Source of the DNA: Eledone cirrhosa
Lineage: Eukaryota
Direction of reading: 5' to 3'
DNA: 64,000 nucleotides
Assembly (NCBI GenBank): GCA_964016885.1
Contig: OZ024741.1
Location: forward strand, 46,314,001 to 46,378,000
A model generated the notes under the pieces. The model was not told where the DNA came from, searched no databases, and saw only the letters and a program-made list of their open reading frames with translations. A program made the translations under genes and the position numbers. Numbering within the stretch: the first letter of the stretch is position 1; every line of letters starts with the position of its first letter. This document shows, piece after piece, positions 1-53,285 of the stretch.

Positions 1-3000
1 AATTTGCTGGGGTACAGTACCTCTCTCTCCATCCTGATTCTTCTTCCAAAATGATATTTGAAAAAACGAATCAGTTGCTCGCCGGAGAGAAAGGTGTCTG
101 ACCTCAGCCCTTTTAACCTCGTCCACCATATAACCTCTTTCGCCATAGCCATAACACATAGGAAAACCGCCTCTCCCTCGTTTTTGAAGGAGTGTGGCGG
201 TTTGATCATGACAATGGACTCGGTGGTCAACCGGATTGGTCCCACCCGCAACAATAGTCGTTCTACATAGCCCCACAGGTCGGTAACGCCCGGGCAGTGT
301 ACAAATGCGTGTGCGACGGTTTCCTCGTCGCGCACGCATGTCGGACAGATCTTTTTCGAAGGGTCCCTACCCGGGCGCCCGTGCCTGTAGAGCTTGTCTC
401 GAACTGGTAGAGCTCCTCGGTAGCACTGCCAGGCCAGGGACTTTGGAAGTTGTCCATTGGTCCCGGGCGGAAGGTCCTACCGAACAGACTGGCCAGTTCG
501 TCCTCCTCTACGCCTAGAGTTTCTCCGAACGTGTCGTCGCACTTGCTGCGAACCAACCCTCTATGGAATGTCGAAGTGGAGTCTCCACTGATCGCCGGGT
601 CCGTTTGCCAGAGGACTGTGAGCGCCTGAGCACATTCGATATGCCAGTCGCCCTTTTTCCTCGGTCTTTGCTTGACCCAGGTCTGCAGCTCGGTCAGTGA
701 GACGAGTCGTGGGAAGGCTCGCCTCACGAACGGGGCCCACACCGGTTGTCTGGTGAGGAATACGTGGAGGAGCCGCAGCCTGAGCGCGTGTTTGCGCATC
801 GTCAGCCACGGCATCCCCAGCCCTCCGTTTGAAGGGTGTTGGCAGCAGATGGATCTTCTCACCAAAGGAGCCCGTTTCTTCCAAAGAGCGTTTTGGCTCA
901 CAACGGTCAAGCGGTAGTAGATGACGGACACTATAAAAGTGTTCGCCACCTCCGCTCGACCTTTCAAGGATAGTTTGCACTCGGCCCACTTCTGGGTGAG
1001 CGCAAACACCTTGGCCGTCACCTCGTTCCAGTTCTTCTCCACCTGGAGGTCAGGACCAAACCAGACCCCGAGCAGCTTTACCGGTCCTTCCGTCCAGCGT
1101 CCGACGACGTCGTCGGAAGGCATCGGTTTGCCTCTCCACGTTCCGAGTTGCAAACCGACGGATTTGTCCCGGTTCAGCTTCGCTCCTATGAACCTCTCGT
1201 ATTCCTCCAGTAAGGTGCCGATCTCCCCAATTTGCGCGGTGCTCGACACCATCACTGGTACGTCGTCGGCGTAGGCCGACGCCGCTTTTCGCAATCCCGG
1301 TTCCAAATGGATGCCCTGCAATAGTTCCAACTTCCGCAGTAGTGGCTCGAGAGTCAGTACGTACAGAAGGGAGGAGAGAGGGCATCCCTGTCGGATGGAT
1401 TCGCGTGATATGGAACGGCTCCGAGAGGTAGCCGTTCACCTTGACCCTTGAGCAGATGTTGCTGTTGTGTATTGCAGCAATCCAGCTCCTGAACACGGGA
1501 CCGAATCCTGCCGCCTCGAGCACCGCATCCAGGTAACGATGGTTAACCCTATCGAAAGCCTTAGACTGATCCAAGTTGATCAGGGCCCCACCGAAGCCGG
1601 ATTTACAGCCTACCCTCTCTATGATGTATCGCATGAGGTGGAGGTTGTCGTGTATGGACCTGGTTGGGATTGCGCATGTCTGCGCTTCTCCCACCAGGTT
1701 TTCGACGACAAGCACCAGCCTCTTTGCCAACACCTTGGCCAAAATCTGTAACTCTGTGTTGAGCAGAGTTATGAGCCGGAAGTTGCCTATGTCATCCCCC
1801 TTGTTCTCGTCCTTTCTGACTAACGTGATTACGCCCTTGATCACAGAACTGGGAATTCTCCCGTTCTGCTGCCAATTGCAGTAGACCGCTTCCAGGAGAC
1901 CGGAGAACAAGTCCGGCATTGCTACGTAAAATTCGTAGGGTAGACCGTCGAGACCTGGAGTTTTGCGTTTGCCGCATTGGCTCAGCGCGTCCCCTATCTC
2001 AGCGGCCGAAATCGGCCTTTCGCAGAACTTTGCCTCGCTGTCCGAGAGTCGCGGTAGGCCGTCGAGGTATGAACTGAAATCCATAGCCCCTCCCGGCGCG
2101 CCGCCCTGCCCCAACAGTTGAGCAAAGTGCCGCTGAAAGGCCGCGCACATTTGCTTCGGCTCACATATCACGCGTCCGTCTTGGTCCTTCAAAGACCGAA
2201 TCGTGGACTTGTTGCCACTTTTCGCCTCCGTCACTCGGGCCCAGCTAATAGTTTTGGCTCCCTCGTTTCCCAGAGCACGTATTTTGCTTCTGACAACGCA
2301 GCCTTCATGCTTTGCATCGAAGAACTGGTCCAAGGCCGTTCTAGTCGCTAGCACGCTGGCTACGTTTCCACTCCTAATTGCCTCTTCTACTTCATCTACC
2401 TGTTTCTTTTCGGTCTTATTTCTATCTAACACTAATTCTTTACTAAAACCTATCGAGTCTAATCTAACTGCCCCCTTGAGAGAGTACCACCATCTGTTGT
2501 TGACAGTGGCCCCCGTCAAGTGCTGCTTAACTAAAGTGCTAATCCGTCTACGGTAGGATTTGCATGTCGGTAACGACAAGTTCAGTTTCCAGTAGCCGGA
2601 TCCCTGTCTATGGGTTTTGTCAAGGTTGACTAAGCAGGTCACTAATTTGTGATCTGAATAGGCAACCATGAACATTTGTGGACAGCTTAACATGTCCCTA
2701 TCCTTATTTCTAACTAGAACCCTATCTAGGTACGATCTAGATGTTCCGCTAAGATTAGTCCACGTCCACAGTGGCACAGTCGGAAAATCTAGTCGATATC
2801 TATCGGCCAATTCGAATCGCCCGATTAACTGTTTGAGGCTGTCACACACCCCTCTATCGGGATATGCTCCCACATAGGCGCAACGTGCATCTAGGATTCC
2901 ATTCCAGTCCCTCACTAACAGCAGGGAGCGGGACGTTCCCAGAAAAGTTTCTAGACGTTTGAAGAAGTCTGGCCGCGGTGTCCCGGATGGGGTATATGCG

Positions 3001-3329
3001 GCCACCAGCCTGAAGGCTCCACCTTCACTACCGTCAACGTCTAGGACCACCAGTCGACCCTCCGGGTCCAGATGTACCGTCTGTGTTACGTGGTCCAGGT
3101 GTTTCCGCAGCAAAACGGCGACCCCACCCCCACCTCCCGGCTGACCGAGAGATGCGTAGATCTCAAAGTAGTCGAAGATGGGGGCCAGTTGTCGCTCGCT
3201 GTGGATCCTGGACTCGCAAATGGCTACTACATCCATGCTGTGCGACCTGAGGTCGTTTAAGAGTTTGCCCTGTTTCCAGGGCATCCCCAGGCCGCGTACA
3301 TTCACACATCCAACTCTTATATTGGCCAT
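1..3329 (-). pseudogene. Tx1 ORF2 (APE endonuclease + reverse transcriptase), frameshifted, copy A
   Basis: NVRGL, DWN, SYLDR and SDH APE motifs; KTPGLDGLP, LDQSKAFDRV and AYADD RT motifs. Split across ORFs 1050-3329 and 263-1330 by a frameshift near 1395. Confidence 0.9.
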
Positions 3330-3365
3330 GTTGGTGCTGAAAAGTTAACAGAAAAGGAAAAGAAA

Positions 3366-5453
3366 TCACTCACCTCTTCGTCTCCTGGGGACCAGGCTGC
3401 ACAATTTCCATGGGGGTGTTGGAGGGGTTGTTTGGTGGGGTGGTGGTCTCTGGAGGGGTGGGGACAGAGATGTTTGGTGGGGAGGGGTGTCTGGTGGGAT
3501 GGGGGTGGGGGTGGGGAAACATTTTAACAGGACTCGATTGTAGGGTTTGACGCAGGCGTTACCTACGTCGTTAGGAAAATTTTCTTTTAACTGTTTATGC
3601 GTGTAAATGGAGGTCCTAATCATTTTAAGATTAGGATTCTCCGATGAGTTTGTAAAAATTTTCCCTTCGGTCTCCACCGAAGGGTTTTTATATATGGTGT
3701 CTGTTAAAGTTTTATTGTTAGTATTTATGTAGGTGTAACATTTTTGTTGTGTTGGATTGCTTTTTGTCTGTGGTTCTTGTGTGTGTTTACGTTTTGTAGT
3801 AGGTGTTTTGTTTTCAGGAGGGGGTGTTTTTGTTTGTGCTGTTTGCGTCGCTTGTGTTGGTGTTTGTTTGTTTGTTGCATTTTTGTTTGTGTTATGTCTT
3901 TTCTTTTTTCTTTTTACTGGTCGGAAAAGCTCTCCCTCGTCGTCACTGGGTGACGATGATGAGGCCTCATCCGTGTTGTTGGGGAGGGGTACGTTTTGGA
4001 GAGCTGTTATGTGTGTGGGTGTTTTGGGAGTTGTTTTAGGTGGGGAGGGGTTGGGTGGGACTGTGTTTGTCGTTTGTTTTGTTGTCACTATTTTTTTATG
4101 TTGTTGTTGTTGTTGTGGTGGTGGTGGTGGTTGTGATTGTTGTGCTGGTGTTGCAGGTGTTGGCAGTAGTTCCTTTTTTTGGCTAGTTAGCCGAGGACAG
4201 GAAGCTCTCACGTGATCCCTGCTTGAGCAGTGGTAACATGAGGGCCGCCTACCCTCGACCGAAATGTTTATGTTTATAAGCCCATCCAGCAACACACGTT
4301 CCGGCATCCTAGCTATTCGTTCTGATGTCATTTGGACCAGAACTTCCAGGCTAGTTCCGCTGAACAGGTCGCCGGAGGACTTACCTACCGATATTATATA
4401 GTCTGTTTCGTGGTTTAAAAATCCACATAGTACCCACCAAATGTCAATATCTGCTGTGATACTTTGGATTTTTATTTTCTGTGTCCTTTTCCCCATGTAA
4501 GTGGGGAAAAAGGTGAACAGCGGTGACACAATTGGCGACACAGAATATTTATGTGCCGTCAATTGGTCTTTCATTAGAATGGATAAACTCCCGTAGAGTC
4601 TACCCTTCTGAATAAAAGCAATGTCTTTTAAGGCATTTTTTAAAGCCAACTCAATTTCGCCTTGTGAAAGTTGAGTCGGTTTTCGTGTTTTGTTTGAGAT
4701 TGTCCTGAAAATCACAGTTTTCAAGGCAGCTTCTCTTCGCAAATCTGGGGGAGAGTTTATGAAGAATGATCCGTTCTCCCCAAAAGTTACATATTGTCTG
4801 GCGTTATTCAAAAGCTCATTTGCATTTGAAATATCTACCAGAGTGTAGCTTACCGTTTTCTTTACGGTTTGCGCAAATGATATTTTGTCGTTTACTTCCT
4901 TGTTACAGTTATTGGCCTTGTTGTTGTTATTATTATTCTTATTGTTGATGTTGTTTTCGTTTTTTCCGTTGTTGGTGTTGTTGTTGGTTGTGGTTTTGTT
5001 GTCGTTGTTGTTGTTGTTGTTCTTCTTCTTCTTCTTCTTGTCACTCTTGTTGTTGATGGCGTTGTTTTGGTTTGTGCCATTCACAGTTTTCGTGTTGGTG
5101 GTGCTGGTGTTGTTGTCAGGGTGTGTTTTAAACATATCGAAGTGTTTCAATGAGGCGGTGAGAGCTGCTTCTTGGCTTGACAGTTTTACCGTCCCTCCAC
5201 CACTTCTGTCTAATTGTTGGCTGACAGATTTGATGTTGTTGTTGTTTTTGTTGCTGTTGTTGTTACTGTTGTTGTTGGTGGTGGTGATAGCAGCAGGCAG
5301 GCAGCCTTCACCTGCTACTAGTGTTGTGGAAGGTGATATTAACAGCCCATCTCCACAATTCTCTGATGTGTTTTTTGTGAAGATGAGATCAAAGAATTTG
5401 GCCATTTTGGCTATATTCAAAATTCCGGTAGAAATTTTGTGGAATTTCTCCAT
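3366..5453 (-). CDS. Tx1 ORF1 (gag-like protein with zinc knuckle), copy A
   Basis: 695 aa open frame with CYHCSSRDHVRASC (CX2CX4HX4C) and Asn/Thr/Pro low-complexity arms. Homologous to the broken ORF1 of copy B. Confidence 0.85.
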   Translation of the reverse strand: MEKFHKISTGILNIAKMAKFFDLIFTKNTSENCGDGLLISPSTTLVAGEGCLPAAITTTNNNSNNNSNKNNNNIKSVSQQLDRSGGGTVKLSSQEAALTASLKHFDMFKTHPDNNTSTTNTKTVNGTNQNNAINNKSDKKKKKKNNNNNNDNKTTTNNNTNNGKNENNINNKNNNNNNKANNCNKEVNDKISFAQTVKKTVSYTLVDISNANELLNNARQYVTFGENGSFFINSPPDLRREAALKTVIFRTISNKTRKPTQLSQGEIELALKNALKDIAFIQKGRLYGSLSILMKDQLTAHKYSVSPIVSPLFTFFPTYMGKRTQKIKIQSITADIDIWWVLCGFLNHETDYIISVGKSSGDLFSGTSLEVLVQMTSERIARMPERVLLDGLININISVEGRRPSCYHCSSRDHVRASCPRLTSQKKELLPTPATPAQQSQPPPPPQQQQQHKKIVTTKQTTNTVPPNPSPPKTTPKTPTHITALQNVPLPNNTDEASSSSPSDDEGELFRPVKRKKKRHNTNKNATNKQTPTQATQTAQTKTPPPENKTPTTKRKHTQEPQTKSNPTQQKCYTYINTNNKTLTDTIYKNPSVETEGKIFTNSSENPNLKMIRTSIYTHKQLKENFPNDVGNACVKPYNRVLLKCFPTPTPIPPDTPPHQTSLSPPLQRPPPHQTTPPTPPWKLCSLVPRRRRGE

Positions 5454-5619
5454 TTTTCGCCCTGATGGGGTTATTATTTGGGGTTGCTACCACCTACAAA
5501 GTGTAGGGTGGCAGCTTATCTACAAAATGGTGTAAGAATGTAGATTCAGTTCATGCAATTTCCAATGAAATTAAAACATTTACTCACCAGCGCGTTTTCC
5601 ACGTGTTAGACAGAATCCG

Positions 5620-5640
5620 AGATAGTAGACAGATAGATAA

Positions 5641-5711
<71 letters not shown>
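5620..5711 (+). repeat. (GATA)n microsatellite between the two Tx1 copies
   Basis: Direct read. It forms the (TATC)n 3' tail of copy B and the 5' flank of copy A. Confidence 0.95.
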
Positions 5712-5712
<1 letters not shown>

Positions 5713-8700
5713 GTTTCTATTTATTTGCGACGAGGGCACAAAAGAAGGGGACAAACACAAGGGGGGGGGGGGGTACATAAAGGAACGAGTAAAAAACAAA
5801 TAACAAATATGAAATTAAAAATACAGTCCTCAATAAGGAGGAGGCGTTTTGGGGGTTACACACACCCCCGAAAAAGTGTGCAACACTTTTTCTTAGGAGT
5901 ACAGACAGGGGTGCTCCTTTGCAATTCCACCTTTCCACCTACAGGCTGATAAAGAGAGAAGGCCCATTCACACGGGCCATTCTCGCCACTTTCACCCACC
6001 TTTCATAAAACTTGCTAGGGTAGAGCACCTCTCTCTCCATTCTGATCCTTCTCTTAAAATGGTATTTAAAGAAAAGGACCAGTTGTTGGCCGGAGAGAAA
6101 GGTATCCGACCTCAGCCCTTTCAAACGTGTCCACCATACCACCTCTTTCACCATGGCTATTACACAGAGGAAGACCGCCTCTCCTTCATTTTTGAAGGGG
6201 GGGGAGGCGGCTTGATCGTTACAATGGACTCAGTGAGCAACCGGATTGGTCCCACCCGTGACAGCAATCGTTCGACATAGCCCCACAGATCGGCAACGCC
6301 CGAGCAGTGTACCAATGCGGTTTCCTCGTCGCGCACGCATCTGGGACAGATTTTTTTCGAGGGGTCCCTACTCGGGCGCCCGTGTCTGTAGAGCTTTTCT
6401 CGAACGGGTAGCGCCCCTCGGTAACACTGCCAGGCCAGGGATCTCTGGAAGTTGTACATAAGTCTCGGGCCAAATGTCCTCCCGAATAGGCTGGCCAGTT
6501 TGTCTTCCTCCATGCCTAGGGCTTGTCCGAGGGCTCGTCGCACCTACTAACCAGCAACCCTTTATAGAATGACGAGGTGGAGTCTCCACCGATCGCCGTG
6601 TCCGCCTGCCAGAGAGCCGTGAGCACCTGGGGACACTCGGTGTGCCAGCCGCCCAGTTTTCTCGGTCTTTGCTTGACCCAGGACTGCAGCTCGGTGAGGA
6701 ATACCTGGAGGTGCCGTAGCCTTAATGCATGATTACGCATCAGCAGCCACGGCATCCCAGCCCTCCTTTCGAAGGGTGTTGACAGCAGATGGATCTCCTC
6801 ACCAAAGGAGCCCGCTTCTTCCAAAGGAATTGGATGATTGGAAGAGTGTGCGCTCCATTTTGGCGAGCGTTTCCCTTGGGCAAGGAACGACGGTCAGGCG
6901 ATAATAGATGACGGACGCTATATAAGCGTTCGCCCCCTCCGCCCGACCTTTCAGGGATAGTTTGCACTCAGCCCACTTCTGCGTCAGCGCAAACACCCTG
7001 TTCGATACCTCACCCCAGTTCTTCTCCACCTGGAGGTCTGGCCCGAACCAGACCCCGAGCAGCTTCACCGGACCCTCCGTCCAACGTCCGACGACTCCGT
7101 TGGAGGCCATCGGTTTGCCCCTCCACTCGCCGAGTTGCAAACCGACTGACTTGTCCCGGTTCAGCTTAGCCCTGTAAACGTTTCATATTCCTCCAGTAAG
7201 GTGCCGATGACCCCGATATCCGAGGCGCTTGACACCATTACTGTCACGTCATCGGCGTAGGCCGACACCGCTTTCCACAATCCCGGTTCCAAAGGATGCC
7301 CTGTAACAACTCCAACTTCCGCAGCAGTGGCTCTAGGGCCAATACATACAGAAGGGAGGAGAGAGGGCATCCCTGTCGGATGGGCCGCGTGATTTCGAAC
7401 GGCTCCGAGAGGTAGCCGTTCACCTTGACCCTAGAGCAGATTCGGCTGCTGTGCATGGCAGTGATCCAGCCCCTGAAAACGGGTCCGAAACCTGCCGCTA
7501 CTAGCACCGCATCCAGGTAACGATGGTCGACCCTATCGAACGCCTTAGATTGATCCAAGTTGATCAGGGCCCCACCAAAGCCGGGTTCATTACCAACCCT
7601 CTTTATGATGTATCGCATGAGATGGAGGTTGTCGTGAATTGACCTGGACGGGATGGCGCATGTCTGCGCATCTCCCACCAGGTTGCCCACAACAAGCGCC
7701 AACCTCTTTGCTAACACCTTGGCCAAAATCTTTAATTCTGCATTTAGCAGTGTTATGGGCCTAAAATTACTTATTTCATCCCCCTTGTTCTCGTCCTTCC
7801 TCACTAGCGAGACTAGGCTCTTGGTCACAGAACAGGGAATTCTCCCGTTCTGTTGTCAGTTGCAATAGACCGCTTCGAGGAGATCGAAGAACAAGTCCGG
7901 CATACTTAAATACAGTTCGTATGGAAGACCATCGAGGCCCGGAGATTTGCGTCTGCCGCATTGGCTCAGCACGTCCCCTATCTCAGCAGCTGAGATTGGC
8001 CTCTCGCAGGACTTCGCCTCCTCGTCCGAAAGACGCGGCAGGCCGTTGAGGTATGGACCGAGGTCCACATCTCCATCCGGCCCCTCATCCCTTCCGAACA
8101 ATCGGGCAAAGTGCCTTTGAAAGGCCTCGCACATCTGCTTAGGTTCAAGGATCACCCGTCCATCCTGGTCTCGCAAAGACCGGATAGTGGATCTAATCCC
8201 ACTTTTGGCTTCTGTCACGCGGGCCCAGCTAACAGCTTTGGTCACCTCGTTTCCCAGAGCACGTATTTTGCTTCGGACAACGCAGCCTTCGTGTTTCGCG
8301 TCGAAGAACTGGCTACGTCGCCGCTTCTAATTGCCTCTTCTACACTATCTACCAACTCCCTTTCCTTCCTATTTCTATCTGAGGCTAACTCCTTACTAAC
8401 TCCTATTGAAGCTACTCTAATCTCTCTTTTGAGAGAGCCCCACCACCTGCTGTTGACGATGGCACCCGTCAACCGCTCCTTAACTAAAGTACTAATCAGG
8501 TTCCTGTAAGCTTTACTTGCCGGTAAGGACAAGTTGAGCTTCCAGTAACCGGGTCCCTGTCTATGCGTTCTATCAAGGTTGACCATGGAGGTCACTAACT
8601 TATGGTTTGAATAGCCAGGCATGAGCATTTTTTGACAACTTAAAAAGTTCCTATCCTTATTTCTAACTAAGAACCTATCTAGGTACGATCTAGATTGACC

Positions 8701-11394
8701 GCTGTGGTTTCTCCAAGTCCAGGTTGGCACAGTTGGAAAACCTAGTCGATATATATCGGCCAGGTCGAATCGGCCGATTAACCCCTTGAGGCTGTTACAA
8801 CCCTCTCTATCAGGACATGCCCCTACATAGTCCCAACGTGCATCTAGGATACCATTCCAGTCCCCCACTAAAAGCAAGAAGCCGGACGTCCCTAGAAAAG
8901 TCTCCAGACGATGGAAGAAGTCCGGCCGCGTTGACCCAAAAGGGCCGTAGACGGCGACCAGCCTAAAAGCTCCGCCTTCACTATTGCCAAGGTCCAGAAC
9001 CACTAGTCGACCCTCCGGCTCCAAGTGTACCGTCTGTGTAGCGAGACCCAGATGTTTTTTGCAGCAGAACGACAACCCCACCCCCACCTCTGTGCTGATA
9101 GAGAGATGCGTCAATCTCAAAGTCATCAAAGGTGGGGGCCAGCTGTCGCACGCTGCTGATCCGGGCCTCGCAAATAACCATCACATTTATACATCGAGAC
9201 CTGAGGTCATTTAGAAGCATTGCTTGCTTCCAAGGTGAGTCCAGGCCACGCGCATTTAGACAACATATTCTCAACACAGCCATGTTGGTTGTAAAGAGAA
9301 AAGGCACTTACCTCTCTGCGTCCCGAGGACCGGGCCGCACAATTTCCATGGGGGTGGGGAGGTTGTGAAAGTCTAGGGGCATCAGTGTGTGTTGGGGTTG
9401 GGGTGTTTTGAGTTGTGTGGGTGTCTGGGGGGAGATTTTTTAGGAGGACACGGTTAATGGGTCTGACGCAGGGGGGCCCCACGTCCTCTTTAAAAGTGTC
9501 TTTTAACGTTTTGTAAATGTCCATTGGGGCTTTTATCATTTTTAGATGGGGAAGCCCCGTTGCTTGTGCGAAATTCGAACCTTCGGTTTTTATTAAGTTG
9601 TTATTATAATAACGTTTAACAGTTTTTTGTTTATTGTATTTATGTAAGTGTTGGCATATTTTTCTTTTTGAGTGATGTTTTTTGTTTGCTGTTGTGTGTT
9701 TTTTTTTTTGTTGACGTCTGTGTTGTGTATTGGAGAGGGGTTGTTTGTATTTGTGTTCCTGTGGTGTGTTTTCTTTTTTTTTCTTTTAACTTTATGAAAG
9801 TGTTCCTCCCCCCTCGTCTGACGACGAAAGGGGGTCGTCTTCCGTATTCGAGGGGAGGGGTTCATTTTCGGCCCGTGTTTGTGGTGTGGGTGTTATTGTA
9901 TTTGTTTTCTGTGTGGGGGGGATGGGGGGATTGTTTTCAGTTGTGTTTTAACTTGTGGTGTTAGTTGTTTTTGCGGTGGTGGTGGAGGTTGTGTTGGTAG
10001 TGTTGTAGTTATTGGTGTGGGCAAAATCGGTGTTTTTTTTTGTTTGCTTGGGACCAGGCAGCCCTCAGGTGACCTCTGCCACCACAGAGGTAACAAGCGG
10101 GTCGTCTACCCTCCACTATGATGTGGAAGTAGGCAAGCCCATCCAGCAATATGCGGTCGGGGATCCTAGCAATTCGTTCTAGCTGCATTTGCACCAGAAC
10201 TTGCAGGCTAGTTCCACCGAACACGTTGCTGGAAGACTTACCTACCGAAATTACTGCATCCTCTTTCAAGTCGAAGAGGCCACACAGTACCGCCCAGAAA
10301 TCAATATTTGGATCGATACTGTGTATGGTCAATCTTTGTGTTCTTCTTCCCAAATAAGTGGGGAAGAAGGTAAATAAGGGGGACACAATTGGGGCCAGGG
10401 AATGTTTTTCGGCCGTCAATTTATCTTTCATTCGGATGGATAGACACCCGTAGAGTCTATCTTTCCGAATGAATACAATGTTTTTCAGATGATCTTTTAA
10501 AGTCAGTTCAATCTCTGTCTGTGTCAGTTCTACTGGCTTACGGGTTTTGTTTGATATTGTCCTATAAATAATAGTTTTTAAGCTATTTTCCTTTTTTAGC
10601 TCTGGGGGAGAATTTAAAGAAAATAGACCATTCTCCTCCAAAGTTATATACTTCCGTGCATTTTCCATTTTCTGGGCCATATTTGAAATGTCAATAGGTT
10701 CATACACAGTGGTTTTTTTGGTAGTTTGCGCGAACGTCATTTTGTTCGCCCCCTCTTTGTTTAGATTTGTCGAAATGAGGTTGTTTTCTTGTTTTTTGTT
10801 GTTACAATTATCATTTTTTGTTGTGTTTGTGTTATTTATGTTGGTGTATGCTTTCACATTTTTTTTCCCGTTGGGGGTTAGACTCTATTTCTTCAAAAAG
10901 TTCACTTATATTTTCAGTATCCGAGAGACTTGTAGTCACAGCTACTACTTCTCTTTCACCTTTTCTGGTGGGCGTGCACCGTGAAAAGTCGAAACGGCAT
11001 CCATTAATTTTGGCAATTTCTCCGAGTCAATTTTTTTCACATTTTTTTCATTAGGGTTAGGCTCCATGTTTTCAATGTTTCTAATAATCATTATTCTTTC
11101 AGTAGGGAGGCTTGTTGCCCCCGCTACCCGCTCTCCTTCAGTTTGTTTAGTGGGCGTGTCATCGTTACCTGTGGTAATGGCTTCCATTACCACTAGCGTA
11201 GAGACAATCACAAAATTTTTAGGATGAAAAATTTCACCCTATAAAGGGTAAAATAAATTAACCCTAATGTCCGAAGACCCAGGCAAGGGGGTTAATTAAC
11301 ACAATAACGCAAGAGTACAGACAAACACTTACTGTTAACACGTAATATATTCAATAATCGAGGTGCCGATGTGAAGAACGTCTATACCATCCGG
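5712..11394 (-). mobile_element. Tx1/L1-clade non-LTR retrotransposon, copy B, full length but degenerate, diverged subfamily
   Basis: Fragmented ORF1 (~9308-11211) and ORF2 (5939-9283) homologous to copy A. AATAAA on the minus strand at 5720-5725, then a (TATC)n tail. 5' end abuts GATA/GATG repeats at 11395-11448. Confidence 0.92.
5939..9283 (-). pseudogene. Tx1 ORF2 of copy B, multiple frameshifts and stops
   Basis: Fragments 8981-9307, 8242-9129, 7856-8245, 7244-7828 (RQGCPLS), 7161-7370 (AYADD), 6799-7140, 6160-6543 (CPRC..HC) and 5939-6154. Confidence 0.9.
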
Positions 11395-12328: not shown

Positions 12329-12371
12329 ATATATAGATATATAGATATAGATATATATACATATATAATAT

Positions 12372-12554
12372 AATTGTTTCTACTTTTGGCACAAGGCCAG
12401 CAACTACCCAGTGAAATTACTGGTACTTTATTTTATCGACCCCGTAAGGATGAAAGGCAAAGTTAACCTCGGCGGGATTTGAACTCAGAATGGCAAGGGC
12501 CGTAACTATGCGTCAAAGCATGGCGTCCGACCCTCTACCGATACTGCCAATCCA
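12372..12554 (-). mobile_element. tRNA-derived SINE, full length, with TSD
   Basis: A box TGGCAGTATCGG and B box GAGTTCAAATCC on the minus strand. TSD atatataatataat at 12361-12374 and 12555-12568. Confidence 0.85.
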
Positions 12555-12708
12555 ATATATAATATAATATACATATATACGTATATGTATGTAAGTAAGT
12601 AGTTATGTAGGTATATAAATACATGATTGTGTGTGTGTGTGACATATGTACTGTATATGTATGTATACATACATATATATGCATACACTTATATATAGAC
12701 ATACGCAT

Positions 12709-15340: not shown

Positions 15341-15349
<9 letters not shown>

Positions 15350-16491
15350 GAAACACACAGATACATGCGGACACACACATATATACATGAATGCATCCGC
15401 ACCCAACTGTGAGTTAAGGGTGCCAACTTCACCGATGTTGCTCAATGAATGACTGGGACAGACCAATTCAGTTTGAACCAGACTGAACCAGTATCAGAGT
15501 TAAAAATACATTAAGAAGAGAGAAGAAACATTTAGATATAATTAGTAATAAAATGTATCATACCTAAACTGTTCCTAAATTCCTCGACTACGTAGTTTCG
15601 TGGCATAAACAAAAACAATATATCAAAGATATAGAGTCCTTGCGAGGTCTGCCGACTTATCAAGAGGATACCTCATTTTACTAGTCTCAAGAACGCGTCT
15701 ACACGTCGTGTAGACGCGTTCTTGAGACTAGTAAAATGAGGTATCCTCTTGATAAGTCGGCAGACCTCGCAAGGACTCTATATCTTTGATATATTGTTTT
15801 TGTTTATGCCACGAAACTACGTAGTCGAGGAATTTAGGAACAGTTTAGGTATGATACATTTTATTACTAATTATATCTAAATGTTTCTTCTCTCTTCGTA
15901 ATGTATTTTTAACTCTGATACTGGTTCAGTCTGGTTCAAACTGAATTGGTCTGTCCCAGTCATTCATTGAGCAACATCGGTGAAGTTGGCACCCTTAACT
16001 CACAGTTGGGTGCGGATGCATTCATGTATATATGTGTGTGTCCGCATGTATCTGTGTGTTTCTAAATATATTAATAACTCCCTCTGGTCGAGCAATCTTT
16101 GAAGTGTGGGGACAACTGGAAAGCTTCCATTACTCATACTTCTCGCCTTCTTCACTACCTCTTCTACGGCCTCGATATGAATACCCCTCCGCCTCCGTGG
16201 TATTTTCTTCGTGGTTATAAGAGGCTTAGCTCTGTTTCTCGACCGTTATATCGCGTGACTATCTCCCCCTCCGCCTTTTGGGATTCTTTCTCACGTCGTG
16301 TAGACGCGTTCTTGAGACTAGTAAAATGAGGTATCCTCTTGATAAGTCGGCAGACCTCGCAAGGACTCTATATCTTTGATATATTGTTTTTTGTTTATGC
16401 CACGAAACTACGTAGTCGAGGAATTTAGGAACAGTTTAGGTATGATACATTTTATTACTAATTATATCTAAATGTTTCTTCTCTCTTCATA

Positions 16492-17808: not shown

Positions 17809-17876
17809 ATGTATGTATGTATGTATGTATGTATGTATGTATGTATGTATGTATGTATGGATGGATGTATGTATGT

Positions 17877-20158
17877 TCTTCTGGTTTTATAATTTCACGA
17901 AGTTTTACCAATAGAGAGAGATTCGGTTTCTAATATAGACACAAGTCTCTCTCATTGGAATTTACAAAACATCAACTAGGTAGATATGTATGCATGCATG
18001 TGTAGATATGGGTGTTATTGTATGTGTGTATGTGTATGTTTTGAGTTGTATGTGTGAATGTCTATATGCTTTGTATCTGTACATGTGTATATGCAGTTAT
18101 TAGATGCAAAATCTTTGGAATGTTTTACATATTTTTACTGTTCCATTAATGGATTGTACTAGTTGTGTTCTTTCTGATCCTTTGAAGTCTAGCTTCTCAA
18201 GATTTGTATTGAAGCAGTTACTAACATATCCCAGTGCCCCAATAATCACAGGCATAAATCTGAAGGTGTGATCAGGGTGGAGTGTCTGCAGATTTCTCAT
18301 CAGTTCTGCATAAATATTCTCCTTTTCACTAATCTTTGATATTATATTGGCATCTGCTGCGCAGCTAATTTCTACTACTGTGGATGCTTTCTTCTCCCTG
18401 TCCCATATCATAATATCTGGTCTGTTATGCCTGCATTTTATTGGGGTTTTTACTGGAACATTCCACCAGTACTCTTTCATATTATGTACATGGATGTCTT
18501 CCACATTGCTGTAGCTTTTAATGTGTTTATTATCGGGGCTATCTTTTTTACGAACTGCATTGTACAGTCTTTTGGCCACTACATCATGCCTCATAGATAG
18601 ATAGTACCGCGATGACATCTTTGGACAGCTGCTGATGACATGGGTGATATCCTCGATGTTAGTTCTGCAGAGTCTGCACTTGTTATCACATCTAGGTGTT
18701 TTGCCTGCGTCCCTATCTCTTTTGTGAATCAGGTATTATGCGCTAATCTCCTGTTCTTGGATTGCAAAAGCGTAGCCTTCAAAGTGGGAGCCAATATAGC
18801 GGTTGTTGGTCCAAGATAGACTAGTTTCCTTAGCTATATTACTCTCACTCTGGAGCTTCCTGGCAACATATCCATGCATGATTTTTTGGTGATAGACATG
18901 CAGTTTTTCATCCATGGATTCACTGCGATACTGCTGAGCGACATCCCTGGATGTGAGTTTTTGATTATCACACAAGGAATATCTCTCAAGGAGTTCCTTG
19001 CCAACTCTCATGATCTTATCTGTTTCATGCAGATAGACTTGCTCGAGAAGCGGGCTCCTACGCTTCGAGGTTCGTAGATGTTGTCGGAGAGATATGATGC
19101 GACATTCAAATGTTGTCTGGACTGATGTTAGACCTCTGCCTCCCTGCTTACGTCTCAAGTAAAGGCGGTCTATGTCACTGTTGTTGTGGAAGTTTCCGGT
19201 GTTGTTCAGTATTTTCCGAGTTCCAACATCAACTGCTCGGATTTCGTCTATCGTCCAATTGAGTATTCCAAACGTTGGTGTTAGGACAGGCACAGCAAAC
19301 ACATTGTGAGCCACTGTTTTGTTTTGCGCAGAGAGTTCTGATGACCAGATCTTTCTTAATCGGGTGTAGTATTCCCTGGTTACGCGTTCTTTATTACAGA
19401 TACCGTTATAGGATATGTTCTCATCTATCACCAGGTATCTGTAGCAGTCCTCATCAGATATCGGTGAAACAGTTAGACCATTGATGACAATGTTGCTAGA
19501 TTGGGTTGTTGTTTTTCCCCGCTTTACAGTCATGTATGAGCATTTATCTTGGCCAAACTCCATTCCTATATCCTTTGAGAACGTTGTAACCAGGTCAAGA
19601 TTTTTCTTCATCCCATCCATGTTGTTGGCATAGAGTTTCAGATCGTCCACAAAGAAGTTATGGGTTAGGTTCGTATTTCTGTCCTCCTGTGAGCCAATGA
19701 TGTATCCCTCACATTTTTTTAGCAGAAAAGACAAGGGGTTTAATGACAATATGAACAATATCACAGAGAGACTGTCCTCCTGAAATATACCCCTGCAATA
19801 TTTTATTTTATCAGTGAAAATAGAGTCCTCCCTCTCTGTTTTAACCTTAGGATAGTAGTCCAAGAAGAAGACGGCTTCTCTATGGCTCTGACAATAATGT
19901 CTGGGACTTTAGCAAGTTGGAGGGCCTCTATCACCCAAGAGTGGGGAACAGAATCGAAAGCCTTCTTGTAGTCCAGACAGACTGTAGTCATATTCCTCCT
20001 AAGTTGTCGCACCTACGACATCGCAGTTTTGTTGATTAAGAGTTGATCAGCACATCCCCAAACCTCTTTCTTTCCAGCTGCTTGTTCATCTGTGATGATG
20101 TTATTATTTTCACAGTGATCTTGGAGGAATAGGTTCAGGCAGGCTGTATGCTTCTTAT
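17877..20158 (-). pseudogene. R4/Dong-like RLE non-LTR retrotransposon, 3' part (inverted copy)
   Basis: FFVDDLKLY, CRLC..H..C, RHD, NRPDI and VEISC motifs. Reverse complement of about 21172-23473. Confidence 0.9.
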
Positions 20159-20427: not shown

Positions 20428-23400
20428 GAACACCACCAAAAATACCATCATAGATAACTAAAATAGAAAAAAAGAATGCTGACCTACGAAAAGACATAGG
20501 ACATGTGACAATGCTCCTTACATGCAAACAAACACAAAAAAACCTCACTCCTCACCAACAAAGAGTGAAAAATGAAATAGAGACGATGTTTGGTAACAGT
20601 AGAACCAGAACTCTCCAATATAAGCTGATCACCCTCAAACAAGAATTGAGAGCTGTTAGGGAAAAACGTCGATACCTGAAGAAGGTAGATGAGAGAAAAA
20701 TGCTTAATAAACGATTCAGACGAAACCAAACATCAATCTATAGAGATATGAAGGGCAAAATAATAAGTGTCACTGAGGCCCCATCCCAGAAAGACATAGA
20801 TTCCTTTTGGAGAAAAATATGGGGTGAAAAGAAGAATTTCAACCAAGATGCAGTGTGGCTAAGAGAAATCCGAAAGAACTATTGCTCCTACACTACAACA
20901 AAAACATACGAAATAAGTGAGGGTACTCTTGAGACTGTGATAGGAAAACTCAAGATAAAAAAACACCAGGAAGAGACATGATTGTCGGCTACTGGTACAA
21001 AAAAACTGATATTCTATCGGAGGTATCTTACTGACCTCTACCAACAAGTTCTTAAGGGAGATACACTTATACCAGAATGGTTGACATTAGCACAAACGTT
21101 ACTGGTCTCCAAGAACAAAGACACCCACTTGGCAAAAGACTACCGACCCATTGCATGCCAGAACCTGATGTATAAGATGTATACAGCCTGCCTGAACCTA
21201 TTCCTCCAAGATCACTGTGAAAATAATAACATCATCACAGATGAACAAGCAGCTGGAAAGAAAAGGGTTTGGGGATGTGCTGAACAACTCCTGATCAACA
21301 AAACTGCGATGTCGAAGGTGCGACAACTTAGGAGGAATATGACTACAGTCTGGCTGGACTACAAGAAAGCTTTCGATTCTGTTCCCCACTCTTGGGTGAT
21401 AGAGGCCCTCCAACTTGCTAAAGTACCAGACATTATTGTCAGAACCATAGAGAGGCTGTCTTCTTCTTGGGCTACTATCCTAAGGTTAATGACAGAGAGG
21501 GAGGACTCTATTTTCACTGATAAAATAAAATATTGCAGGGGTATATTTCAGGGGGACAGTCTCTCTGTGATATTGTTCATATTGTCATTAAACCCCTTGT
21601 CTTTTCTGCTAAAAAAATGTGAGGGATACATCATTGGCTCACAGGAGCACAGAAATACGAACCTAACCCATAACTTCTTTGTGAACGATCTGAAACTCTA
21701 TGCCAACAACATGGATGGGATGAAGAAAAATCTTGACCTGGTTACAACGTTCTCAAAGGATATAGGAATGGAGTTTGGCCAAGATAAATGCTCATACATG
21801 ACTGTAAAGCGGGGAAAAACAACAACCCAATCTAGCAACATTGTCATCAATGGTCTAACTGTTTCACCGATATCTGATGAGGACTGCTACAGATACCTGG
21901 TGATAGATGAGAACATATCCTATAATGGTATCTGTAATAAAGAACGCGTAACCAGGGAATATTACACCCGATTAAGAAAGATCTGGTCATCAGAACTCTC
22001 TGCGCAAAACAAAACAGTGGCTCACAATGTGTTTGCTGTGCCTATCCAAACACCAACGTTTGGAATACTCAATTGGACGATAGACGAAATTCGAGCAGTT
22101 GATGTTGGAACTCGAAAAATACTGAACAACACCGGAAACTTCCACAACAACAGTGACATAGACCGCCTTTACTTGAAACGTAAGCAGGGAGGCAGAGGCC
22201 TAACATCAGTCCAGACAACATTTGAATGTCGCATCATATCTCTCCGACAACATCTACGAACCTCGAAGCGTAGGAGCCCGCTTCTCGAGCAAGTCTATCT
22301 GCATGAAACAGATAAGATCATGAGAGTTGGGAAGGAACTCCTTGGGAGATATTCCCTGTGTGATAATCAAAAACTCACATCCAGGGATGTCGCTCAGCAG
22401 TATCGCAGTGAATCCATGGATGAAAAACTGCATGCCTATCAGCAAAAAATCATGCATGGATATGTTGCCAGGAAGCTCCAGAGTGAGAGTAATATAGATA
22501 AGGAAAGTAGTCTATCTTGGACCAACAACCGCTATATTGGCTCCCACTTTGAAGGATACGCTTTTGCAATCCAAGAACAGGAGATTAGCACGAAATACCT
22601 GATTCAAAAAAGAGATAGGGATGCAGGCAAAACACCTAGATGTGATAACAAGTGCAGACTCCTCAGAACTAACATCGAGGATATCACCCATGTCATCAGC
22701 AGCTCTCCAAAGATGTCATCGCGGTACTATCTACCTATGAGGCATGATGTAGTGGCCAAAACACTGTACAAGGCAGTTCGTAAAAATGATAGCCCCGATA
22801 ATAAACACATTAAAAGCTACAACAATGTGGAAGACATCTATGTACATAATATGAAAGAGTACTGGTGGAATGTTCCAGTAAAAACCCCAATAAAATGCAG
22901 GCATAACAGACCAGATATTATGATATGGGACAGGGAGAAAAAAACATACACAGTAGTGGAAATTAGCTGCCCAGAAGATGCCAATATAATATCAAAGATT
23001 AGTGAAAAGGAGAATATTCATGCAGAACTGATGAGAAATCTGCAGATACCCCACCCTGATTACACCTTCAGATTTATGTCTGTGATTATTGGGGCACTGG
23101 GGTGTGTTAGTAACTGCCTCAATACAAATCTTGAGAAGCTAGGCTTCACAGGAACAGAAATAACACAACTAGTTAGGAAACTACAAGTACAATCCATTAA
23201 TGGAACAGTAAAAATATGTAAAACATTCCAAAAATTTTGCATCTAATAACTGCATATACACATGTACAGATACAAAGCATATACACATGCACACATACAA
23301 CTCAAAATATACACATCCACACATACAATAACATCCATATCTACACATGCATGCATACATACATATCTACCTAGTTGATGTTGTGTAGATTCCAATGAGA

Positions 23401-23473
23401 GAGTCTTGTGTCTATGTTATAAACCGACTCTCTCTCTATTGGTAAAACTTTGTGAAATTATAAAACCAGAAGA
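20428..23473 (+). mobile_element. R4/Dong-like RLE non-LTR retrotransposon, 5'-truncated, flanked by (CATA)n on both sides
   Basis: ORFs 20505-20981 and 20982-23246 (frameshifted) with YRPIAC, LDYKKAFDSV, FQGDSLS, FVND (mutated), degenerate CCHC, RHD and PD-(D/E)xK motifs. Confidence 0.92.
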
Positions 23474-23888
23474 ACATACATACATACATACATACATACA
23501 TACATACATACATACATACATACATACATACATACATACATACATACATACATACATACATTACTTTATATATCGACTAAACTTGAATTGCTAGAAATAT
23601 TAAAAAATAACAAAATGTTTCACTGATATTAAACAAAGGATGAAAACATATCAAATATATTATAAAGGATGGATCAAAAGATATTGGAATATGCAAAAAA
23701 TGATATTGCAAAATGCCAAAAAAATATTATTTCAATGTAGAAGTAGGTATTTTGTTATTGAAATTCATATTACATTTCTGCTAATTCTAATCTGGATAAA
23801 ATAAGAATTTTTATGTAAATAATGATTTGAATGTGTGTGATGAACTTCATAAGTACGATATACATATATATGTGTGTGTGTAAGTATG

Positions 23889-31917: not shown

Positions 31918-32204
31918 CGAGCAAGTTATTCCATCGATTGAGCAACTGGAACATTCATCGTTAAAAAAAGTTGCTCTACTAGGAACATTTGATATCCTGC
32001 TCAAGATATCGATTCAATCATACGATTCAGACAGTAAAATCTCCACAGTCTTTACAATAAGCATGAAATAGAATAACACAACTTATAGAACATCAACTCT
32101 ACAAGATTAATACCTAATAAAATAACATAACATATACCCCTACTCAAGACCAATAACTCTTACAATCAATATTCTAGGCAGCTGCCACAAATTGATGCTA
32201 CATC

Positions 32205-35200
32205 ACACACCACACAACACGGAACCATACACAACACACCACACAACAAACATCACACACCACAGAACCTTACACCACACACCATACATTCCACGTCACA
32301 CACCACACACCACACATCCATCACACCACACACCACACACCACAAACCACACATCACACCACACACCACACACCACACACCACACACCACACACAAACAT
32401 CACACCACACACCACACACCACACACCACACACCACACACCACACATCACACCACACACCACACACCACACACCACACATCACACACCAGACATCACACA
32501 TCACACACCACACACCACACACCACACACCACACACCACACATCACACACCAGACATCACACATCACACACCACACACCACACACCACACACCACACATC
32601 ACACCACACACCACACCACATCACACACCAAATATCACACTACACACCACACACCACACCACACACCACACACCACACACCACACATCACACACAACACC
32701 ACACACCACACACCAGACATCACACATCACACACCACACACCACACACCACACACCACACATCACACCACACACCACACATCACACCACACACCACACCA
32801 CACACCACACACCAGACATCACACATCACACACCACACACCACACCACACACCACACACCACACACCACACCACACACCACACCACACACCACACACCAC
32901 ACACCACACCACACACCACACACCACATACCATAGTACACACCACACACCACACCACACTCACACCACACACCACACCACACCACACCACACCACACACC
33001 ACACACCACACACCACACACCACACACCACACCACACACCACACACCACACACCACACCACACTCACACCACAGAACTTTACACCACACACCACACAACA
33101 CACACCACACACCACACCACACACCACACACCACACACCACACTCACACCACACAACACACACCACACACCACACACCACACACCACACATCACACCACA
33201 CTCCACACACCACACACCACACACCACACACCACACACAAACATCACACCACACACCACACATCACACCACACACCACACACCACACATCACACACCACA
33301 CACCACACACCACATCACATCACACACCAAATATCACACTACACACCACACACCACACCACACTCCACACACCACACACCACACATTACACACCACACAT
33401 CACACACCACACACCACACACCAGACATCACACATCACACACCACACACCACACACCACACACCACACCACACACCACACATCACACCACACACCACACC
33501 ACACACCACACACCATACATCACACCACACACCACACATCACACCACACACCACACCACACACCACACACCAGACATCACACATCACACACCACACACCA
33601 CACCACACACCACATACCACACCACACACCACACACCACACACCACACCACACACCACACCACACACCACACACCACACACCACACCACATACCACACAC
33701 CACACCACACACCACACACCACACACCACACACCATAGCACACACCACACACCACACACCACACCACACTCACACCACACACCACACCACACCACACCAC
33801 ACACCACACACCACACCACACACCACACACCACACCACACACCACACACCACACCACACTCACACCACACACCACACCACACCACACCACACACCACACA
33901 CCACACCACACACCACACACCACACCACACACCACACACCACACACCACACCACACACCACACACCACACAACACACCACACACCACACACCATAGCACA
34001 CACCACACACCACACACCACACCACACTCACACCACACACCACACCACACCACACCACACCACACACCACACACCACACACCACACACCACACACCACAC
34101 CACAAACCACACACCACACCACACACCACACACCATACACCACACACCACACCACACCACACCACACACCACACACCACACACCACACACCACACCACAC
34201 CACACCACACACCACACACCACACACCACACACCACACACCACACCACACACCACACGCCACACCACACACCACACACCACACACCACACCACACTCACA
34301 CCACAGAACCTTACACCACACACCACACACCACACACCACACACCACACCACACACCACACACCACACACCACACTCACACCACACACCACACACCACAC
34401 ACCACACACCACACCACACACCACACCACACACCACACACCACACACCACACTCACACCACACACCACACACCACACACCACACACCACACACCACACAC
34501 CACACACCACACCACACACCACACGCCACACCACACACCACACACCACACCACACTCACACCACAGAACCTTACACCACACACCACACACCACACACCAC
34601 ACACCACACACCACACCACACACCACACACCACACACCACACCACACACCACACACCACACACCACACACCACACGCCACACCACACACCACACACCACA
34701 CCACATCACACCACACCACACACCACACACCACACCACACACCACACACCACACACCACACATCACACACCACACCACACACCACACACCAGACACCACA
34801 CACCACACACCACACACCACACCACACCACACCACACCACACACCACACACCACACACCACACACCACACACCACACCACACACCACACCACACCACACC
34901 ACACCACACCACACACCACACACCACACACCACACCACACACCACACCACACCACACCACACACCACACACCACACACCACACACCACACACCACACACC
35001 ACACCACACACCACACGAGACATCACACATCACATACCACACACCACACCACACCACACCACACACCACACACCACACTCACACCACACAACACACACCA
35101 CACACCACACACCACACACCACACATCACACCACACTCCACACACCACACACCACACACCACACACCACACACCACACACCACACATCACACACCAGACA

Positions 35201-37247
35201 TCACACCACACTCCACACACCACACACCACACACCACACACCACACACCACACCACACACCACACACCACACATCACACCACACTCCACACACCACACAC
35301 CACACACCACACACCACACATCACACCACACACCACACACCACACAGCACACACCACACTCACACCACACTCCACACACCACACACCACACACCACACAC
35401 CACACTCCACACACCACACTCACACCACACACCACACACCACACACCACACACCACACATCACACCACACACCACACACCACACACCACACCACACACCA
35501 CACACCACACAGCACACACCACACTCACACCACACTCCACACACCACACACCACACACCACACACCACACATCACACACCAGACATCACACACCACACAC
35601 CACACACCACACACCACACATCACACACCAGACATCACACCACACTCCACACACCACACACCACACACCACACACCACACACCACACCACACACCACACA
35701 CCACACACCACACACCACACACCACACCACACTCCACACACCACACACCACACACCACACACCACACACCACACCACACACCACACATCACACCACACTC
35801 CACACACCACACACCACACACCACACACCACACATCACACACCAGACATCACACCACACTCCACACACCACACACCACACACCACACACCACACACCACA
35901 CATCACACACCAGACATCACACCACACACCACACACCACACATCCATCACACCACACACCACGCACCACACACCACACATCACACCACACACCACACCAC
36001 ACCACACACCACACACCAGACATCACACCACGCACCACACACCACACATCACACCACACACCACACCACACCACACACCACACATCACACACCAGACATC
36101 ACACCACACTCCACACACCACACACCACACACCACACATCACACACCACACCACACACCACACACCACACACCACACCACACCACACTCACACCACACCA
36201 CACACCACACACCACACACCACACACCACACATCACACCACACACCACACCACACACCACACCCCACACACCACACTCACACCACACACCACACACCACA
36301 CACCACACACCACACACCACACACCACACCACACTCCACACACCACACACCACACACCACACACCACACACCACACCACACACCACACACCACACATCAC
36401 ACCACACTCCACACACCACACACCACACACCACACACCACACATCACACACCAGACATCACACCACACTCCACACACCACACACCACACACCACACACCA
36501 CACACCACACATCCATCACACCACACACCACGCACCACACACCACACATCACACCACACACCACACCACATCACACACCAAACATCACACTACACACCAC
36601 ACACCACACCACACACCACACACCACACACCACACATCACACACCACACCACACACCACACACCAGACACCACACACCACACACCACACATCACACCACA
36701 CACCACACATCACACCACACACCACACCACACACCACACCACACACCACACACCAGACATTACACATCACACACCACACACCACACCACACACCACATAC
36801 CACACCACACACCACACACCACACACCACACCACACACCACACCACACACCACACACCACACACCACACACCACACCACACTCACACCACAGAACCTTAC
36901 ACCACACACCAAACACCACACACCACACCACACACCACACCACACACCACATACCACACCACACACCACACACCACACACCACACATCACACCACACACC
37001 ACACATCACACCACACACCACATACCACACCACACACCACACACCACACACCACACCACACACCACACCACACACCACACACCACACACCACACACCACA
37101 CCACACTCACACCACAGAACCTTACACCACACACCACACACCACACACCACACCACACACCACACCACACACCACATACCACACCACACACCACACACCA
37201 CACACCACACATCACACCACACACCACACATCACACCACACAACACA
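32205..37247 (+). repeat. 5 kb strand-asymmetric (CACCA/CACCACA)n complex satellite
   Basis: Mix of 5-mers and 7-mers with recurrent marker variants (cacagaaccttacacc, ccagacatc, cactccac). Confidence 0.95.
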
Positions 37248-37249
37248 AC

Positions 37250-37789
37250 CTAGAAAACCCTATACGATAACTCCATGTCCACACGGGAAATCTACTCGGT
37301 ACCTATAAGACAGTTGGAATTGTTTGATCAGGCTTTTGAGGCTTTTGCAACCCACTCACCGTGCCTTTATCGACTACTCACACACAGTCACAGCGTGCGT
37401 CTAAAATACAGTTCTGGTTCCCAGTTAAATGTAACTAACGAGACGTTCCAAGAAAGGCTTTCAGATTCCGGGCGAAATCTGACTGTCCAAACCCATTCGG
37501 GGCATAGTCGGCAACAAATCTAAAAACAACACCTTCGTTATTGCTCACATCCAGAAACACCAACTTTCCGTCTGTAACTCGAGATTCAGGCCTCCCATCC
37601 CAGGCCAATTAAGAGATCCGTAGATCTCAAAGTCGTCAAAAATCGGGGCTAGTGCGTATCACATATCAGGATCACGTTGACGCTGTCACATCTACCGTAA
37701 ATGATCTGAGGTTGTTGAGAAAGCGACCTTGCTTCCAGGACTACCCAAACCACGTACATTTATGCTAATCCACTCTTAAATTTGCCATG
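37250..37789 (-). pseudogene. Old Tx1 ORF2 N-terminal (APE) remnant
   Basis: Aligns by eye with 2716-3329, for example gatctgaggttgttg..ccacgtacatt..tttgccatg. Confidence 0.7.
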
Positions 37790-39430: not shown

Positions 39431-39432
<2 letters not shown>

Positions 39433-39964
39433 AAATAAAGTTAAATAAAAGTCAAATGATTAAAATTTAGCTTCGTTTATTACTGCTATATATATTTCAG
39501 TGACAGCCATCTTTGGCTGTGACCTCTTCAGGCAGTTTGAATTAGTAATCTATAGACAAGTACATATGTTGTTTAGGTGTATGATATTGTCAATACTCTG
39601 ATATGCCCAGTTCCTTGTTGGGTTGTTAATTCACTGGGGAACTGGAGTCATGTATGACTCCAGTTCCTCAGTGAATTAACAACCCAACAAGGAACTGGGC
39701 ATATCAGAGTATTGACAATATCATACACCTAAACAACATATGTACTTGTCTATACCATACTAATTCAAACTGCCTGAAGAGGTCACAGCCAAAGATGGCT
39801 GTCACTGAAATATATATAGCAGTAATAAACGAAGCTAAATTTTAATCATTTGACTTTTATTTAACTTTATTTTACACTACTCCGGAGTAACCAAACCAAC
39901 CTGCGCACTTCGTCGAGTGCTCCAGCCTGCATACTGAGGTGTTGGTATACAACCAACATAAACT

Positions 39965-52672: not shown

Positions 52673-52736
<64 letters not shown>

Positions 52737-53285
52737 TCGGGATTTGCTCTAGGGTTCTTATATATTTGATATATATTTATCCTTATCGAGCCTTGTGAAA
52801 TAAATACGTTTGTTTATATCTTGTTATTGTGTATGCAAAACTATCTGTACACGAATATATAATTATATATATTAAAATAACAGATTAAAGTTTAAGCAAA
52901 GAATCGCTGCTTTCACCCTTAACGGGATATTCTGAAACTAAAAAATCAATCTGTGAACGCAGAAGTAAATATTTTGAAAAATGTTACACATTATATATAT
53001 ATATATAATGTGTAACATTTTTCAAAATATTTACTTCTGCGTTCACAGATTGATTTTTTAGTTTCAGAATATCCCGTTAAGGGTGAAAGCAGCGATTCTT
53101 TGCTTAAACTTTAATCTGTTATTTTAATATATATAATTATATATTCGTGTACAGATAGTTTTGCATACACAATAACAAGATATAAACAAACGTATTTATT
53201 TCACAAGGCTCGATAAGGATAAATATATATCAAATATATAAGAACCCTAGAGCAAATCCCGAGCATCGCCGGGCTATTCTGGTAG
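52358..53285 (+). mobile_element. Non-autonomous Helitron-like element containing a 534 bp palindrome (52733-53266)
   Basis: 5' A|TCTATATA..(GTCT)n, a 3' GC hairpin cccgagcatcgccggg, and end gtag|T (degenerate CTAG). Confidence 0.6.

Follow-up and report, generated by a model that had tools for sequence, protein, structure and literature searches.

A conserved, probably functional 5' splice site where ORF1 ends in LINE families of Eledone cirrhosa, and two chimeric families joined at its exon boundary

Background

The closest described case is the donor G98U99 of human L1, which is conserved and rarely used; mutation of this donor lowers the RNA level, and the SpIREs leave exact splice junctions in the genome (PMC5860796). 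A second related case is that of mRNA/LINE-1 chimeras, which may arise through template switching or through splicing in cis or in trans (10.1101/2025.02.02.635956). Two precedents come from Rous sarcoma virus, namely PTBP1 binding after the gag stop (PMC4764554) and a decoy donor (PMC9143442). As these sources describe them, the NRS and RSE of this virus are retroviral, separate and far longer than the site considered here, and may be taken as a functional analogy only (PMC9143442, PMC4764554).

The LINEs reported here share with human L1 a conserved donor and exact junctions in genomic copies, but the L1 donor belongs to the 5' UTR and has been attributed to a RUNX3 site, whereas the present one lies at the end of ORF1; moreover, SpIREs are described as dead ends arising within one element, whereas our junctions lie between elements and their products are amplified (PMC5860796). 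As in the mRNA/LINE-1 chimeras, the 5' partner ends at a donor and a LINE is joined to it (there in some cases at an acceptor); in that system, however, the donor belongs to a host exon and the promoter is replaced, while here the donor is the LINE's own and conserved, and the 5' UTR is replaced together with ORF1 (10.1101/2025.02.02.635956). The elements also resemble Kibi and Koshi of the Tx1 group, which are two-ORF non-LTR elements residing in microsatellites, except that the present ones probably target (TATC)n and (ATT)n (PMC4494074).

Our literature search by title and abstract, with most subscription papers and Repbase Reports outside its scope, found neither an ORF1-end donor nor ORF1 swaps made by splicing. 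To our knowledge, two questions are open: by what route a LINE family obtains a different 5' end and ORF1, and what allows a bicistronic LINE RNA to pass through nuclear processing and escape decay. The reading proposed below, if true, would supply a sequence-encoded mechanism for the replacement of the 5' end and ORF1 long seen in LINE evolution; and one genome holds, together with young families that are intact, a donor kept through repeated frame changes and dated chimeras whose cut coincides with its boundary, which makes both questions testable.

Results

The window is the whole 64,000-nt stretch of DNA analysed here; every result comes from the one genome to which it belongs (3.0 Gb searched). 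Its minus strand carries a head-to-tail pair of LINEs, copy B (11392-5712) followed by copy A (from 5630 to past the window start), with (TATC)n between them. The features referred to below are as follows.

1..5630, minus strand: LINE copy A (family A1), whose 3' end falls outside the window, roughly 300 nt past its start
5712..11392, minus strand: LINE copy B, family B1, decayed
5644..5711, minus strand: (TATC)n microsatellite linking the 3' end of copy B to the 5' end of copy A in a two-family head-to-tail array
5582..5587, minus strand: donor-like GTGAGT in the 5' UTR of copy A, some 45 nt into the element
11327..11332, minus strand: donor-like GTAAGT in the 5' UTR of copy B
3366..5453, minus strand: ORF1 of copy A, open up to the junction, its end shifted by one base relative to the MEIV frame
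4379..4384, minus strand: donor-like GTAAGT within ORF1 of copy A, with a counterpart at 10241 in copy B
3450..3452, minus strand: CAG, 76 nt 5' of the copy A donor, homologous to the cut point of chimera J2
3374..3411, minus strand: MEIV motif, the final 13 codons of the family ORF1 frame; exon boundary at 3374
3368..3373, minus strand: conserved 5' splice site GTGAGT of copy A, containing the TGA stop of the MEIV frame
3337..3367, minus strand: pyrimidine tract and AG of copy A (AG itself at 3338-3337, present in only 8 of 18 lineages)
3327..3336, minus strand: ORF2 ATG of copy A (at 3329) with its Kozak-like context
1..3329, minus strand: ORF2 of copy A, encoding an endonuclease and a reverse transcriptase, with frameshifts near 1400 and 440
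9306..9311, minus strand: conserved 5' splice site GTAAGT of copy B, containing a TAA stop
9281..9305, minus strand: AG-less pyrimidine tract of copy B, followed by its ORF2 ATG (at 9283) in a Kozak-like context

The first-pass annotation of this DNA had laid out both junctions correctly, in copy A from the exon end through GTGAGT, the pyrimidine tract and the AG to the ORF2 ATG, and in copy B from GTAAGT (9311-9306) to the ATG; the intron lengths it derived (37 nt in A and 21 nt in B) are also right, and either join would be in frame. It had, however, called the ORF1 of copy A degenerate, which it is not: 706 codons are open, and the frame arrives at the junction shifted by one base from the MEIV frame. 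That the MEIV frame is the ORF1 frame is confirmed by the intact elements B2, C2 and A4 (L149, L143 and L248, respectively), whose ORF1 ends in it; the counts of the three frames in decayed copies do not settle the matter, being 10/11/5 among 26 A copies with the anchor (the modal spacing of 144 nt corresponds to the MEIV frame) and 10/9/9 among 28 B copies.

The best named protein match belongs to Argonauta hians (60%). Exo_endo_phos, RVT_1 and zf-RVT were found in all three intact ORF2s (zf-RVT slightly below the cut-off in one), and a CCHC-like motif is visible in ORF1, with Pfam E-values of 0.067-0.085, i.e., below the cut-off for acceptance, in two of five ORF1 sequences. The inspected full-length copies, which were a selected set, adjoin (TATC)n or (ATT)n. 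The Tx1 label appears plausible for these LINEs; the search matches included no named Tx1 reference. Two metagenome scans found no relative, and Rfam gave no match at the junctions.

The donor was compared in 18 lineages, one natural copy each; six representatives were obtained with a pattern conditioned on the donor, and 12 by DNA or protein searches or as neighbours, with no donor requirement. The motif GGTRRGT, with the exon boundary after its first G, lies 27-49 nt 5' of the ORF2 ATG in all 18 representatives and in both clades of the endonuclease tree, with the reservation that the locating expression GGT[AG][AG]GT fixes five columns, whose invariance is partly by construction, and that copies of the old families D and E were picked for a readable donor. 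Against the U1-complementary consensus, the donor matches at 6-9 of 11 positions in 18/18 lineages. Among 18 other, old loci with an endonuclease match, the exact GTAAGT occurs in 11, a one-base variant in three and neither in four. The third element of the window, an old fragment of a related endonuclease (minus strand, 37249-37788; 35% identity), has no donor upstream of 37788.

Relative to the donor, the ORF1 stop occupies +2..+4 in 10 lineages, starts at +6 in six, lies at +28 (phase 0) in one, and has no assignment in the remaining one; the stop codon inside the donor, which the first-pass annotation had taken to be a common property, is thus only one of three states. The donor is found in all three ORF1 phases, and the phase shifts within both clades of the endonuclease tree (A4 stands among phase-2 families and F among phase-1 families); lineage F keeps the donor although the MEIV peptide is gone. 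GT, +5G and +6T persist across the frames, and all changes at +3/+4 are splice-compatible. In 10 lineages, positions +5/+6 fall outside the coding sequence, and in six, +2 is at a wobble position. None of the columns +7 to +15 is invariant, and invariant four-fold sites at the endonuclease start number 0/8 and 0/6 within the two clades, a null that is inflated by the use of single decayed copies. Judged from the sequences, the occurrence of the motif across lineages exceeds chance, and the constraint is on the donor nucleotides rather than on the internal stop, the frame or the acceptor.

The acceptor side behaves differently from the donor. In 30 loci of family A, GTGAGT is kept in 29 and the AG before ORF2 also in 29; in 30 loci of family B, GTAAGT is kept in 26 and the AG in none. 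Conservation across genomic copies, which the first-pass annotation had named as a check, holds for the donor in both families and for the AG in A, but in none of the 30 B loci; and since all 30 family-B copies lack the AG, it was not lost through decay in copy B, which had been read as a mutation of AG to AC. Over the lineages, a tract of 78-96% pyrimidines and a Kozak-like ATG are present in 18/18, the AG in 8/18, and removal of the donor-to-AG segment is out of frame in the young intact families C2 and A4. Inspection of A, B2 and C2 by eye revealed no conserved acceptor in the 3' UTR.

Donor-like sites recur in the 5' UTRs. Of 16 putative 5'-end clusters, five were dropped as microsatellite or truncated, which left 11 mutually unalignable 5' UTRs; 10 of these have a GTRAG no more than 90 nt from the start, compared with 0.09-0.26 per shuffle. 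The sites were located at 5582-5587 and 11327-11332 in the window and in L249, L216, L142, L218, L245, L149, L145 and L147. Thus, a donor-like site precedes each ORF. At the place of the site within ORF1 (4379..4384), A4, B2 and C2 have no GTRAGT. Many of these 5' UTRs also have an ACGTG-like word within the first 30 nt, which presumably resembles a downstream promoter element.

Two chimeric families are cut at the exon boundary of the donor. J1 consists of an A-type ORF1 cut at this boundary and joined to family B3, 23 nt 5' of B3's own donor; native B3 has CAG immediately before the cut point (3 copies). In J2, an ORF1 that is sister to that of window copy A is joined to a J1-type element, after CAG, 76 nt 5' of the J1 junction. 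J1 was found at at least 17 places and J2 at three, on several chromosomes. Their upstream halves belong to two separate lineages and their downstream halves are all B3, so J1 and J2 represent two events. In L214 and L221, the J1 junction is preceded by a J2-type ORF1, and these two copies may go back to J2. Both chimeras have the junction by which SpIREs are recognized, exactly at the donor on one side and directly after AG on the other, but the halves come from different families rather than from one element, and the products were amplified instead of being single-round dead ends.

As a control, 90 junction rows were collected in 232 loci (718,777 element bases). Three of them are J1/J2; among the other 87, none is at the ORF1-end donor, one permits a GT..AG reading, two are near another GTRAG and four are backward joins. 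A rough hand estimate, which assumes about 1,000 A/B-type copies (from 48 of the first 100 of 2,016 matches) and three equivalent cut positions, puts the number of breaks expected by chance at the donor at about 0.36 for all kinds together and at 0.02 for backward joins, while two backward ones are observed; selection for working chimeras would, in addition, crowd breaks toward the ORF boundary. J1 and J2 are each also compatible with a 2-nt AG microhomology and may be plain joins of this kind, and the J1 acceptor tract is poor in pyrimidines. Template switching to an RNA that ends at the donor would account for both as well and would also need the spliceosome. No chimera using the stronger AG before ORF2 was found. 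Both chimera acceptors sit shortly 5' of a strong donor, and exon definition would favour an acceptor in such a position. Heterologous tandem arrays were observed, including the one in this window.

Since spliced human L1 RNAs retrotranspose (PMC5860796), spliced RNA of the present elements, if made, should partly do so too. The genome was accordingly searched for the exon end joined to anything but the intron. For A1/A2/A3/B, 29 matches were obtained, comprising 11 of a one-base-shorter variant, 15 of J1 and three of J2; the complementary pattern gave 87 rows, which beyond the earlier matches contained only point or indel variants. The search for C yielded nothing by the first pattern and 12 places by the second, all of them variants or a downstream deletion, and that for A4 yielded 31 rows, variants only. 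Any exon fused to the A-type AG before ORF2 was matched twice, both times by deletions. Neither the product with the mini-intron removed nor a product joining the 5' UTR to ORF2 was found in these genome searches, which are blind to anchors that carry a mismatch and to junctions combining +5 G with T at an excluded position. An in-frame acceptor at ORF2 codons 5-6 was considered, and the search for A1/B found no such junction. Within the 23 nt 5' of the donor, J1/J2 are the only breaks among the first 100 (contig C1) of 514 matches, a set dominated by family A4. In three sequencing runs that resemble genomic DNA, and are thus silent on expression, none of the 15 joints listed (of 213) is at the donor.

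Discussion

The donor at the end of ORF1 is conserved without a conserved acceptor or frame, and two chimeric junctions coincide with it exactly. The first-pass annotation was right to see here a conserved and probably functional 5' splice site: the motif is present in every lineage compared, and both chimeras are cut at its exon boundary. We consider it probable that the spliceosome recognizes this donor.

The explanation we favour, to which we give an even chance, is that the donor is mostly an unspliced U1-binding site supporting full-length RNA, and that in the rare cases of its use within a tandem array ORF1 passes from one family to another. U1 snRNP would bind the sites at the ORF1 end and in the 5' UTR and keep the element RNA full length and productive; the pyrimidine tract may bind PTBP1, which would damp splicing and shield the ORF1 stop from decay; and ORF2 would be expressed from the unspliced bicistronic RNA. 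In a read-through RNA of a head-to-tail array, the donor would sometimes be spliced to a site in the element that follows, and retrotransposition of this RNA would found a new family whose 5' UTR and ORF1 have been exchanged. The protection argument is weakened by the small number of internal poly(A) signals (2-4 per element on the sense strand and 0-4 on the opposite strand), which leaves the need for protection not obvious.

More tentatively, and with somewhat less than an even chance in our judgement, a U1 site may stand before each ORF, the one at the ORF1 end being deliberately unpaired, and the donor may be a built-in joint for exon shuffling that founds new active families. The spliceosome would then pass the promoter and ORF1 of one family to the ORF2 of another, which head-to-tail stacking in microsatellites would enable.

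An ORF1-only RNA, produced when the donor is spliced to any downstream acceptor of the host or of the next element, or when first-step spliceosomal cleavage frees the 5' exon, is in our opinion unlikely, though less so than the alternatives that follow; J1 and J2 would then result from splicing or from a jump of the reverse transcriptase onto the freed end. It agrees with the position of the donor exactly at the ORF1 end in every phase, with the lack of a conserved acceptor and with the stop of both chimeras at the exon boundary. Nevertheless, no genomic copy was found to end at the donor and continue with a tail, a microsatellite or the 3' UTR, the cut would delete the stop codon in phase-2 lineages, and conservation of a branch point is not established.

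Less likely again, the junction could be a signal for translation or against nonsense-mediated decay, composed of a reinitiation spacer, a Kozak ATG and a PTBP1 tract, the donor match being incidental and J1/J2 due to cryptic splicing or microhomology. The tract and the Kozak-like ATG common to all lineages speak for it, as does the finding that PTBP1 near a stop blocks decay, described for Rous sarcoma virus (PMC4764554); the persistence of GT, +5G and +6T across frames and the donors in the 5' UTR would, however, be left unexplained.

We regard as improbable that the hexamer persists through common ancestry or for a reason at the DNA level, such as a site for a factor or in a promoter. The human L1 donor has been proposed to lie inside a RUNX3 site (PMC5860796), and our lineages are indeed related, being 72-85% identical over most of their length; but adjacent non-coding and synonymous positions diverge, and the breaks of the chimeras lie at the exon boundary.

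The control of ORF2 by splicing to the AG before it, proposed in the first-pass annotation as a mini-intron fusing ORF1 and ORF2 or as mutually exclusive exons, appears very improbable: the in-frame 37 nt of A1 and the eight lineages with the AG are in its favour, yet the AG that either version requires is missing in the other 10 lineages and in all 30 family-B copies, removal would break the frame of both C2 and A4, an intron of 21-37 nt would fall short of the usual minimum length, and our genome searches found no copy lacking the intron, although missing retrocopies are weak evidence against an ORF2-only RNA because it would need ORF1 in trans. Mutually exclusive exons cannot be a general arrangement here, but may apply to the eight lineages with the AG. 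Foamy virus pol, an enzyme ORF expressed from a spliced RNA, resembles the mutually-exclusive-exon version; that route, as described, needs a conserved acceptor before the enzyme ORF (PMC9143442), unlike the situation here.

Additional observations

Family C2 is very young, with many intact 1150-codon ORF2 frames among 150 scored matches, and forms an array in contig C1 (423.365-423.418 Mb, L142-L144) of about ten 5.84-kb units arranged head-to-tail in (ATT)n. Family A4 (L248, L249) has about 500 matches, intact ORF1 and ORF2, and tandem arrays in (TATC)n. L245 and L246 contain tandem A4 units of 2.4-2.7 kb with ORF1 and the junction, from which most of ORF2 is missing; their origin as splice products was rejected, as the junctions are not splice-like. 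The 5'-truncation points of L177, L180, L181 and the 3' part of L149 lie within about 250 nt 5' of the ORF1/ORF2 junction.

Elsewhere in the window, an inverted pair of 2.37 kb and 95.7% identity occupies 17809-20158 and 21172-23541; near-perfect palindromes of 440-730 nt lie at 15341-16071, 39431-39874 and 52733-53266; and a strongly skewed simple satellite, of the GTGTG type on the minus strand, extends over about 32000-37200. A dispersed 200-nt repeat at 12367-12569, which we take to be SINE-like, has further copies near 13425, 28862 and 46752.
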